From: a virus
Taxonomy: Duplodnaviria; Heunggongvirae; Uroviricota; Caudoviricetes
Length of the DNA: 23,016 nt
Strand: one strand, 5' to 3'
Virus record (IMG/VR): IMGVR_UViG_2531839468_000018
Location: 1 to 23,016 of that record
Made by a program: the position numbers and the translations under genes. The notes beneath the pieces were generated by a model, which ran no database searches, was not told the origin of the DNA, and worked only from the letters and a program-made list of their open reading frames with translations. The stretch's first letter is position 1. Each line of letters opens with the position of its first letter. This document shows, piece by piece, positions 7,678 to 8,643 of the stretch.

Positions 7678-8643
7678 ATGAGTAAGTGGCTATTAGACAG
7701 GCTATTTGAAGCCGGTGATCAGGCAGAGCCCCGGTTTGCGTTTCAGGGGACTGTAAATTGGATGAGGGCCCTTGCCGAAGTCGTTAACGGTGGCGCTTGT
7801 GCCGATGATAAACTAAATGATTTATATGCTCGGGTACAACGTAGACCTGTCAATCGTGAAGCTGATACGCTTGTGTTTGAGAACACAATGATGGCCTTAC
7901 ATAATCTGTCATCTTTGAAAAGTATGAATAAAGATGTCGAAGATAAATATGACATATGTCGTTCAGCTATTATTTCTTGGTATTACAGTATCTATTTTTC
8001 CGCTAGCGCGATGGTTGCAGCATCTTCTGGTTCTATTCAAGAGACACATACAGCCACAGCAAAAGTTTGGCAGTCAGATATCGCGGAAAAAGAACTTATC
8101 CCATATCCATTTAATCTTCTTCTAACTAGTTTAGTTTCAAACACTGCTGATGCCGAGATTGCTGCATATAGAGGTGCTAACCGTTTCGACCTGAATAATA
8201 GAGCTTATGATAATGAAACTGCTCATGGTGCACTGGTTTCCTATCTAAAGGGGACTCATGGCTACAAAAAGTGGGAAACAGAAGAGAGGGTGAGAACTTC
8301 TCGTGATTTCAAAGCTCTTGGTGTTGACAACTTTCGCACGAAAGCTGCTCGCGAAGTTCGCGATCACGCACTAGAAAAAGGACAAGTTAATTTCCTTATT
8401 CAGGCATTTAGATACCGTGGTAAAGCGAACTATCGTGACTCTATATTTTTATCCTACGGTGACAACAACGAAGCTATTATAGAAGAATTTATCCAAGATT
8501 TGTATGATGTCGCTATTGGCTTCATTAGGGCTACTTCGCATTATTGCAGTCGAAGAGTCGAGAGAGGTACGTGGGCTGAGTTTGTCGAGGATATTTCTGA
8601 TAACTCAAGGTTGTCTATTGACTCTGTCGTGCTTGAAATATAA
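7678..8643 (+). CDS. Hypothetical protein (321 aa), unknown function, at the island terminus
   Basis: Long ORF with ATG start and AAAGG upstream, AT-richer than the neighbouring IS; no family recognised; contains one R-x4-H (REVRDH), which is weak on its own. Confidence 0.55.
   Translation: MSKWLLDRLFEAGDQAEPRFAFQGTVNWMRALAEVVNGGACADDKLNDLYARVQRRPVNREADTLVFENTMMALHNLSSLKSMNKDVEDKYDICRSAIISWYYSIYFSASAMVAASSGSIQETHTATAKVWQSDIAEKELIPYPFNLLLTSLVSNTADAEIAAYRGANRFDLNNRAYDNETAHGALVSYLKGTHGYKKWETEERVRTSRDFKALGVDNFRTKAAREVRDHALEKGQVNFLIQAFRYRGKANYRDSIFLSYGDNNEAIIEEFIQDLYDVAIGFIRATSHYCSRRVERGTWAEFVEDISDNSRLSIDSVVLEI

Follow-up and report, generated by a model that had tools for sequence, protein, structure and literature searches.

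HEPN domains are common in toxin and defence proteins, and their canonical motif Rx4-6H lies, according to the 2013 survey of the superfamily, where helix 3 ends, its arginine being followed by a polar residue; the superfamily also takes in families without this motif (PMC3710099). The AF0298-type HEPN-T proteins and AbiV usually lack the histidine of the motif, often having an aspartate, and keep the basic residue; a second conserved histidine contributed by an insert between helices 2 and 3 could make up an alternative active site (PMC3710099). A further relative is HepS, the 'HEPN solo' protein of the Gifsy-1 prophage (PDB 9oik), which is non-toxic at rest and, once switched on by tail-tip proteins, cleaves tRNA in the anticodon loop (PMC13043305). 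Here we analyze a gene for a protein of 321 amino acids (aa) at positions 7678 to 8643 of a 23,016-nucleotide stretch of Caudoviricetes DNA (IMG/VR record IMGVR_UViG_2531839468_000018), which as a whole is called the window in the following. The protein has the HEPN four-helix core and is of the alternative-histidine type; the nearest subgroup is the AF0298-type HEPN-T. We consider the gene a good candidate for a one-protein anti-phage defence. The most likely reading, to which we give about an even chance, is that this HEPN-fold protein stands alone in the cytoplasm and works by itself as an anti-phage RNase of the abortive-infection type.

7678..8643, + strand: open reading frame (ORF) of 321 aa with an ATG start; product of 36.6 kDa, pI 5.5

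The protein is exactly WP_000049501.1, which is annotated as 'hypothetical protein'. An earlier annotation of the window by a model that saw only the sequence (the original prediction) had called the gene an orphan. No match was obtained in Pfam, NCBIfam, PADLOC or PHROGs and, in a single-sequence search, no matching PDB sequence. A comparison of 40 family members with Pfam at E values up to 10 also returned nothing relevant and no HEPN family, and the accessions of the family are absent from the papers in the searched literature. The protein belongs to a family not described before, which is best filed as a new family inside HEPN and deviates from each named family there in several features. 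There are 767 close relatives in a large protein collection, and an exhaustive hidden Markov model search gave 400 clusters at 50% identity (307 at E<=1e-10), nearly all of about 320 aa. The family is carried by 117 of 185,579 species representatives and is found in Gamma-, Beta- and Alphaproteobacteria, Cyanobacteria, Nitrospirota, Planctomycetes, Chloroflexi, Acidobacteriota, Deinococcota, Elusimicrobia, Omnitrophota, Verrucomicrobia, Bacteroidetes and Campylobacterota, the free-living carriers including marine Gammaproteobacteria. Copies with at least 90% identity occur in Escherichia, Klebsiella, Leclercia, Proteus, Pantoea, Vibrio and Grimontia, and the ratio of nonsynonymous to synonymous substitutions (dN/dS) against the copies of Aeromonas, Pseudoalteromonas and Photobacterium is 0.06-0.08. 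Judged from these sequence comparisons the protein is functional, strongly constrained and horizontally mobile. Truncated or split copies are present on several Klebsiella pneumoniae plasmids (H47-H50), in E. coli (P0016, 239 aa) and in Providencia (L060, residues 180-321 only), which suggests occasional inactivation. Two longer proteins were considered as informative fusions and rejected as probable chimeras or assembly artefacts: in P0123 (461 aa) family residues 1-255 precede an unrelated C-terminus that bears an FRG-like YRG motif, and in P0247 (482 aa) a dehydrogenase-like N-terminus precedes family residues 145-308.

The layout of the protein as we now read it is given below, the residue counts referring here and in the following to 209 near-full-length family members.

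7678..7854, + strand: N-terminal extension (aa 1-59), in which M-x2-WLL and F-A-x3-T-x-NW are conserved; the model has low confidence for residues 12-18
7855..8028, + strand: putative HEPN helices 1 (aa 60-85) and 2 (aa 90-117); W101-Y102-Y103 in helix 2 are near-invariant, and this helix can be aligned to helix 2 of the AF0298 type
8047..8049, + strand: codon of H124, the near-invariant 'alternative' histidine (204/209)
8050..8391, + strand: helical insert of about 115 aa that separates helices 2 and 3 (aa 125-238) with conserved P144, Y189, G192-T193, F219-R220 and R228-D229
8350..8367, + strand: REVRDH (aa 225-230), R228 and D229 conserved, H230 unconserved; no HEPN motif
8410..8439, + strand: signature block R245-Y-R247-G-K249-A-N-Y252-R253-D254 at the end of putative helix 3, the usual position of Rx4-6H
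8470..8556, + strand: putative HEPN helix 4 (aa 265-293), assigned by topology

The lower entries of the fold comparison comprised AbiV (5.4), HepS (5.4), LsoA (5.0) and Csm6. Foldseek returned nothing but noise from the PDB and from viral models; the probable reason is that the insert splits the HEPN core, which is probably discontinuous in sequence. No full-length relative has a solved structure. Two profiles were also compared with the PDB by sequence. With the one built from divergent members (down to 25% identity) the sole match was the AF0298-type structure 2hsb at a sub-threshold E value of 0.41; this match is insignificant alone, yet it agrees with the independent result of the fold comparison. 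Weak profile matches to mitochondrial processing peptidase and to ribosomal protein L35 were dismissed as composition noise. An hhalign comparison of the family with AF0298-like sequences annotated as PF05168 placed residues 97-131 against 30-64 with a probability of 81.5% and an E value of 1.1e-5; the AF0298-like sequences used were truncated (46-94 aa), so that this comparison covers the N-terminal half. It pairs WYY with AYY, AM with AM and ETH with RTH, followed by a tryptophan, and sets H124 opposite the conserved histidine of the AF0298 type. As the alignment anchors both, the helix 90-117 can be equated with HEPN helix 2 and H124 with the histidine that follows helix 2 in AF0298. A C-terminal profile (aa 215-300) found no match in the PDB, and for this reason the assignment of helices 3 and 4 stays topological: putative helix 3 spans residues 239-251 (239-258 with the motif block) and precedes the final long helix, 265-293. 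Sequence alignment thus supports the helix mapping in its N-terminal half, and the C-terminal half would follow from topology. The insert of about 115 aa may be a sensor or regulatory module.

The original prediction had pointed to REVRDH because of an R-x4-H spacing like that of HEPN nucleases. The hexapeptide is present, but position 230 is filled in the family mostly by K (64), N (27), E (24), R (21), A (21) or D (11), next to nearly invariant R228 and D229. Since the histidine is not conserved, the spacing R225-x4-H230 is a chance feature of the present copy. Strong conservation is instead seen for H124 (204/209), R245 (205), R247 (202), K249 (205), Y252 (202), R253 (205) and D254 (199). 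A canonical Rx4-6H motif is not formed by these residues, as the block 245-254 contains no histidine and R247 is followed by G248. The spacings R247-x6-D254 and K249-x4-D254, kept in at least 95% of the members, fit the pattern in which D replaces H, the C-terminal half in question being unaligned to HEPN-T. Five members lack H124, and four of them also lack R247, three of these four Y252 as well, with R245, K249, R253 and D254 being kept. Conversely, R247 is missing in only 3 of the 204 members which have H124, and these three appear truncated or chimeric. The four members that have lost both H124 and R247 (P0125, P0170, P0171 and P0179, three of them also without Y252) are full-length and are possibly inactivated or repurposed copies. 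This joint loss suggests that H124, R247 and Y252 act together; the evidence is suggestive and not strong because the degenerate members may stem from only about two independent events.

The same residues can be read in another way. The cluster of H, R, K, Y and D could bind a nucleotide or another ligand in a non-catalytic HEPN protein that serves as sensor, adaptor or regulator, and ligand binding has been proposed for the HEPN domain of sacsin and for the substrate-binding domains of nucleotidyltransferases (PMC3710099). This is the main rival of the RNase reading and we regard it as unlikely: a solo adaptor is hard to explain where no fused or linked enzymatic partner is found, the joint loss of a few invariant polar residues in degenerate members is more typical of a catalytic site, and AF0298-type proteins have been argued to keep an alternative active site (PMC3710099).

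For the analysis of possible partners ORFs were called around 73 genomic homologues, and 539 neighbours (four genes on each side) were compared all against all. With a minimum length of 70 aa no neighbour family was present at more than four of the 73 loci and none at a fixed position. At the nucleotide level the similarity between genera is confined to the ORF with about 19 bp upstream and about 15 bp downstream, and the flanks show no tandem repeats, no significant structures and no Rfam match. With no recurrent neighbour, unconserved flanks and neither repeats nor an RNA family, we conclude that the gene has no conserved protein or RNA partner. These findings also bear on the idea that the protein is a toxin with an overlooked antitoxin, which could be an RNA, as abiV2 is for AbiV, or a protein of very small size. 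Such a pair would be in line with the RNA antitoxin control of the structural relative AbiV, with the 227 bp of 5' non-coding DNA in the mobile unit described below, and with small upstream ORFs at some loci, for example a HigB-like one (L003) and one of 54 aa with a zinc ribbon (L016). However, these small ORFs vary from locus to locus (as noted, the neighbour comparison started at 70 aa) and the similarity around the ORF is narrow, with flanks that show neither repeats nor significant structures nor an Rfam match. We hold this explanation to be very improbable.

The neighbours of the homologues are diverse overall, yet mobile-element and defence genes recur among them. Gabija-like and Wadjet-like genes lie near the homologue in Agaribacterium; an integrative and conjugative element (ICE) of Deferribacterales brings together an integrase, PIN, Shedu (SduA_C) and an MmeI-type enzyme; Methyloprofundus has DruA and integrases; and CcdAB, RES-Xre and ParE modules as well as a HigB toxin are found at further loci. 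Families repeated among the 258 nearest ORFs are Phage_integrase, rve, subunits of type I restriction-modification (R-M) systems, OLD-TOPRIM/GajA with AAA_15/21/23, Abi_C, HerA and TrwB. Seven of ten tightly adjacent large genes are of defence type, namely HsdR (at 13 bp), HEPN_Swt1-DUF499 (4-bp overlap), two AAA_13 ATPases, HerA, a DEAD-box helicase and DUF3644. In the case of the 4-bp overlap, on an alphaproteobacterial metagenome-assembled genome (L077 6690-9989), the start of the homologue overlaps the end of a gene for a 1,100-aa HEPN_Swt1 + DUF499 ATPase, so two different HEPN proteins appear to share one operon. A gene with an NTP_transf_2 domain lies two genes from the homologue at one Aeromonas locus, and on certain chromosomes some copies stand alone amid housekeeping genes. 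The association with defence genes is real, but it is semi-quantitative only, since redundancy in the neighbour counts from PADLOC precluded a total.

Carriage by mobile elements allows a further explanation, in which the gene benefits the element outside host defence as an accessory anti-defence factor or as a weapon between elements. The gene is indeed found on plasmids, on phage-plasmids, in variable slots of prophages and on an ICE beside a relaxase and the coupling protein of a type IV secretion system, and such slots also hold cargo other than defence genes, for example GNAT and GFA genes. On the other hand the HEPN fold is overwhelmingly tied to toxin and defence roles (PMC3710099), the chromosomal copies amid housekeeping genes do not fit well, and the family was not found in the lytic or temperate genomes of the phage collection, the usual home of anti-defence genes. 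We regard this explanation as improbable.

The same gene is present in 42 of 5,426 complete E. coli genomes, and in all 42 an EcoRII-type endonuclease gene and a cytosine methyltransferase gene lie directly upstream. This R-M pair (L002 9000-11676; L001 9001-11677) encodes EcoRII-N and EcoRII-C domains and a cytosine-5 methyltransferase; some E. coli strains have a LEM-3-like GIY-YIG gene on the other side, and in the window the IS66 element takes the place of all this. One could thus think of a suicide nuclease of the PrrC/RloC kind which is latent under the R-M system and is freed when a phage disables it, the more so as a homologue (L059) lies 13 bp downstream of a type I HsdR gene, two more neighbourhoods contain type I R-M genes and HEPN domains are often embedded in R-M operons (PMC3710099). 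However, at least eight E. coli genomes have the same R-M pair without the gene. In these genomes the sequences corresponding to 7329-7449 and 8760-9093 of the window are kept, and the DNA between them, about 950 bp long, is unrelated and shows no clear gene. Conversely, the gene occurs without the pair on the examined Klebsiella and Pantoea plasmids and in the present window, where the pair has been lost through the insertion of an IS66 element or a linked deletion. As R-M pair and gene each occur alone, the gene is no obligate R-M component. In E. coli it is a separate cassette inserted beside the pair, most other loci have no R-M neighbour, and the ABC-ATPase domain of the PrrC/RloC type is absent. 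An R-M-coupled nuclease is therefore quite improbable in our opinion.

The gene travels as a mobile unit of 1.36 kb, which is delimited by two 24-nt sites named S (start) and E (end).

7427..8786, + strand: mobile unit with one gene, made up of S site, 227-bp 5' region, ORF, terminator and E site
7427..7450, + strand: S site GTCTGCT-CTGTGCCAAT-TGCAGAC, 24 nt, 7-nt inverted arms around a 10-nt centre
8752..8777, + strand: terminator-like hairpin with T-run just 3' of the ORF, overlapping the start of the E site
8763..8786, + strand: E site GCCCGCT-TTTCGCTCAT-AACAGAC, 24 nt, S-type arms with a different centre
S/E cassettes and arrays in other sequences: L019 1131-4055; L099 6750-8109; L100 6750-8148; L018 9750-11109; L102 7629-10162; L103-L110

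This cassette is found at 99% nucleotide identity in five unrelated backgrounds: the prophage end of E. coli, a Klebsiella plasmid (pKP301b, an SSU5-like phage-plasmid), a Pantoea megaplasmid, a Silvania chromosome and a metagenomic contig. When these are compared, the breakpoints lie within the sites in all five: the outer arms, on the left in S and on the right in E, vary with the host DNA, and the stretch between them travels with the cassette. Since the arms follow the host and the interior follows the cassette, we conclude that the exchange takes place inside the 10-nt centres. The consensus sequences are GTCCGCT-nTGTGCCAAnn-GCRGAC for S and GYCCGCT-TTTCGCTCAnn-GCGGAC for E in the same orientation, and the two sites listed above are the only matches in the window. 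Inverted arms of 7 nt around a 10-nt centre are the layout of a tyrosine-recombinase core site, and two classes of sites with shared arms and different centres would allow a directional exchange of cassettes. The S centre GTGCCAAT may resemble the sfx site of shufflons, a likeness on which we do not rely. The alternative that the junction of E, linker and S is an integron attC site was rejected, as RYYYAAC/GTTRRRY core boxes are missing and the 24-nt sites are each palindromic in themselves.

Outside the cassette of the 321-aa gene the same sites enclose other cargo. On the metagenomic contig (L019) E is followed after exactly 18 nt by S three times in an array with unrelated cargo in either orientation; the cargo comprises a protein of 182 aa which by eye we take to be a GNAT-like acetyltransferase (568-1116) and one of 390 aa (2670-3842, - strand) whose N-terminus may be DUF3800-like, so that the orientation of the cargo is free. 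The contig (USAV01000131.1) is binned as 'uncultured Veillonella sp.'; it carries the enterobacterial cassette at 99% identity together with the S/E arrays, and the label is probably due to an Enterobacterales binning contaminant. Exactly the same E-spacer-S junction occurs in eight IMG/VR viral contigs with similar arrays, and loose matches elsewhere are rare (14 in 1.56 Mb). Phage P2 (33.6 kb) has only two matches, at L111 15335-15358 and 17432-17455, and they flank fun(Z); on a P2-like contig the cargo switches exactly at the S/E sites. The slot of the SSU5-like Klebsiella phage GArcari-2022b equivalent to that of pKP301b (L102 8071-8817) holds a protein with NYN and OST-HTH/LOTUS domains, a predicted RNase, and a GFA-family gene. 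The sites thus occur in lambdoid, SSU5-like and P2-like elements, on a megaplasmid and on a chromosome. The distant homologues of Aeromonas, Photobacterium and Pseudoalteromonas have no S or E sites, and we conclude from this that packaging as a cassette is a trait of the enterobacterial lineage and not of the whole family. To judge from its title, a 2004 study by Nilsson et al. reportedly already proposed site-specific exchange at the variable loci of P2, and the S and E sites may be those implied there; the later papers on such hotspots that were consulted make no mention of S/E-type sites.

The surroundings of the cassette in the window are marked by the following features.

7329..7426, + strand: left host (prophage) remnant, cut on its left by the end of IS66 at about 7328
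9035..9080, + strand: att fragment of thrW, identical to the final 46 nt of tRNA-Thr thrW, marking the prophage end

The remnant 7329-7426 is common to the E. coli strains with the EcoRII-type R-M pair, whether or not the cassette is present. Much of what the original prediction said about the setting of the gene proved accurate. It had described a single 321-aa ORF with its own upstream region, of lower GC content than its neighbours and wedged between a dead IS66 copy and a boundary marked by a tRNA fragment, in the terminal position of a prophage. The ORF is exact and is preceded by about 350 bp of native DNA counted from the IS66 junction at about 7328; a consensus scan of the region upstream of 7678 passed no sigma-70-like promoter. 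Its GC content is 41.7% (33.6% at third codon positions) against 55-59% in the IS66 element on the left. The IS66 copy is disrupted and dead, because the transposase is split over two overlapping ORFs: that at 5728-6735 corresponds to positions 1-78 of the DDE_Tnp_IS66 profile and that at 6597-7298 to positions 103-283. The tRNA fragment is that of thrW at 9035-9080, ARAGORN finding no whole tRNA in the window, and the chromosomal site is the proA-thrW integration hotspot. In the 42 other E. coli genomes, too, the gene lies at the end of a lambdoid prophage, past the tail-fibre genes and adjoining the thrW att fragment.

At the left edge of the window (700-1389) there is a gene for an NleG type III effector (PF06416, E 7e-44), which indicates an attaching-effacing E. 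coli background; between this gene and the 321-aa gene lie an IS3-type element (1663-2936) and the dead IS66. The original prediction had also considered a further secreted effector, and prophage ends do hold effector genes. This idea did not hold up and is essentially excluded: the fold is HEPN, family members are found in free-living Cyanobacteria, Chloroflexi, Deinococcota, Nitrospirota, Planctomycetes, Acidobacteriota and marine Gammaproteobacteria, Vibrio, Klebsiella, Proteus and Pantoea have copies with an identity of 90% or more, and NleG belongs to a different unit, being parted from the 321-aa gene by three insertion sequence (IS) elements. On the other side of the gene, a second 3' fragment of thrW (19 nt, 22461-22479) pairs with the 46-nt copy at 9035-9080, and the two bracket a second integrated element of about 9.1-22.4 kb. 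This element has the look of a phage satellite, with a major capsid protein gene, a gene annotated as baseplate and an integrase gene (21041-22405, - strand); an IS3-family element breaks it at about 10.4-11.6 kb.

Returning to the reading as an anti-phage RNase, the protein might work as follows. H124 together with R247 and Y252, aided by R245, K249, R253 and D254, would form a metal-independent RNA-cleaving site, which probably would be completed across a dimer as in other HEPN enzymes. As there is no antitoxin partner, we infer that the resting protein is inactive; it would be held closed by its N-terminal extension and its large insert until a phage-derived cue arrives, and the ensuing cleavage of RNA would arrest the infected cell. 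Delivery of the gene is by the self-contained cassette of 1.36 kb, which brings along a 5' region and a terminator, has the two 24-nt sites of recombinase type as its ends and enters variable slots in temperate phages, phage-plasmids, plasmids and chromosomes. The more far-reaching version, namely a first 'histidine-less' AF0298-type HEPN nuclease using H124 with R247 and Y252, with an insert of about 115 aa in the same polypeptide that directly recognises a phage product, so that one protein would be both immune sensor and effector, and with a cassette exchange common to P2-like, lambdoid and SSU5-like elements, we regard as doubtful.

If the RNase reading is true, a compact (1 kb) one-protein anti-phage system would be added to those known, and there would be a handle on a question of the 2013 survey, i.e., whether HEPN proteins without the histidine of Rx4-6H are still nucleases by way of an alternative histidine. 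One more HEPN defence candidate will hardly surprise specialists; the family is, however, compact, widespread and clinically present, being carried by clinically relevant E. coli isolates of the ST361 type and by Klebsiella phage-plasmids of about 110 kb in addition to many environmental phyla. The cassette shows, moreover, that plasmids and such unrelated temperate elements as P2-like phages, lambdoid prophages and SSU5-like phage-plasmids draw on one shared pool of accessory and defence genes by way of defined 24-nt sites, and the S/E sites can be used as a search key for further candidate defence genes.

Among the known systems HepS is by analogy the closest working precedent. Like the present gene it is a single partnerless HEPN gene in accessory slots of temperate elements. 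It has 218 aa and a canonical R100-x4-H105, without detectable sequence kinship to our family, and the tetramer, tail-tip sensing and anticodon cleavage are features of HepS. AbiV of Lactococcus (PDB 9bj5, 201 aa) exemplifies that a HEPN enzyme can carry catalytic residues in an insert past core helix 2. It uses 91-RNHKSKH-97 and needs the abiV2 RNA antitoxin, whereas the present family has no conserved flanking RNA, no match to Pfam HEPN_AbiV and a different constellation of conserved residues. With PrrC and RloC the gene shares, in E. coli, the position of a HEPN-type nuclease domain beside R-M genes, here the EcoRII-type pair, as would befit a second line of defence; in contrast to them it has neither the ABC-ATPase N-domain nor a canonical motif, and its R-M linkage is loose. 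As to the mode of spread, the Z/fun locus of phage P2 is comparable. The fun(Z) gene is non-essential and blocks T5; it lies between the P2 genes G and FI, flanked by the same S/E sites at which cargo is exchanged. Our cargo is unrelated to fun(Z), and its slots are different ones: here it is at a lambdoid prophage end, and in other backgrounds on a megaplasmid, on a chromosome or in an SSU5-like phage-plasmid, none of them a P2-like phage. The AF0298-type HEPN-T proteins (UPF0332/COG2250, PF05168, PDB 2hsb), finally, are single domains of about 125 aa which are often beside or fused to a minimal nucleotidyltransferase, whereas the present protein is 2.5 times longer and partnerless, adds an N-terminal extension of 59 aa and the core-splitting insert of about 115 aa and matches no Pfam HEPN model; what the two have in common is the signature of helix 2, followed by the conserved alternative histidine.

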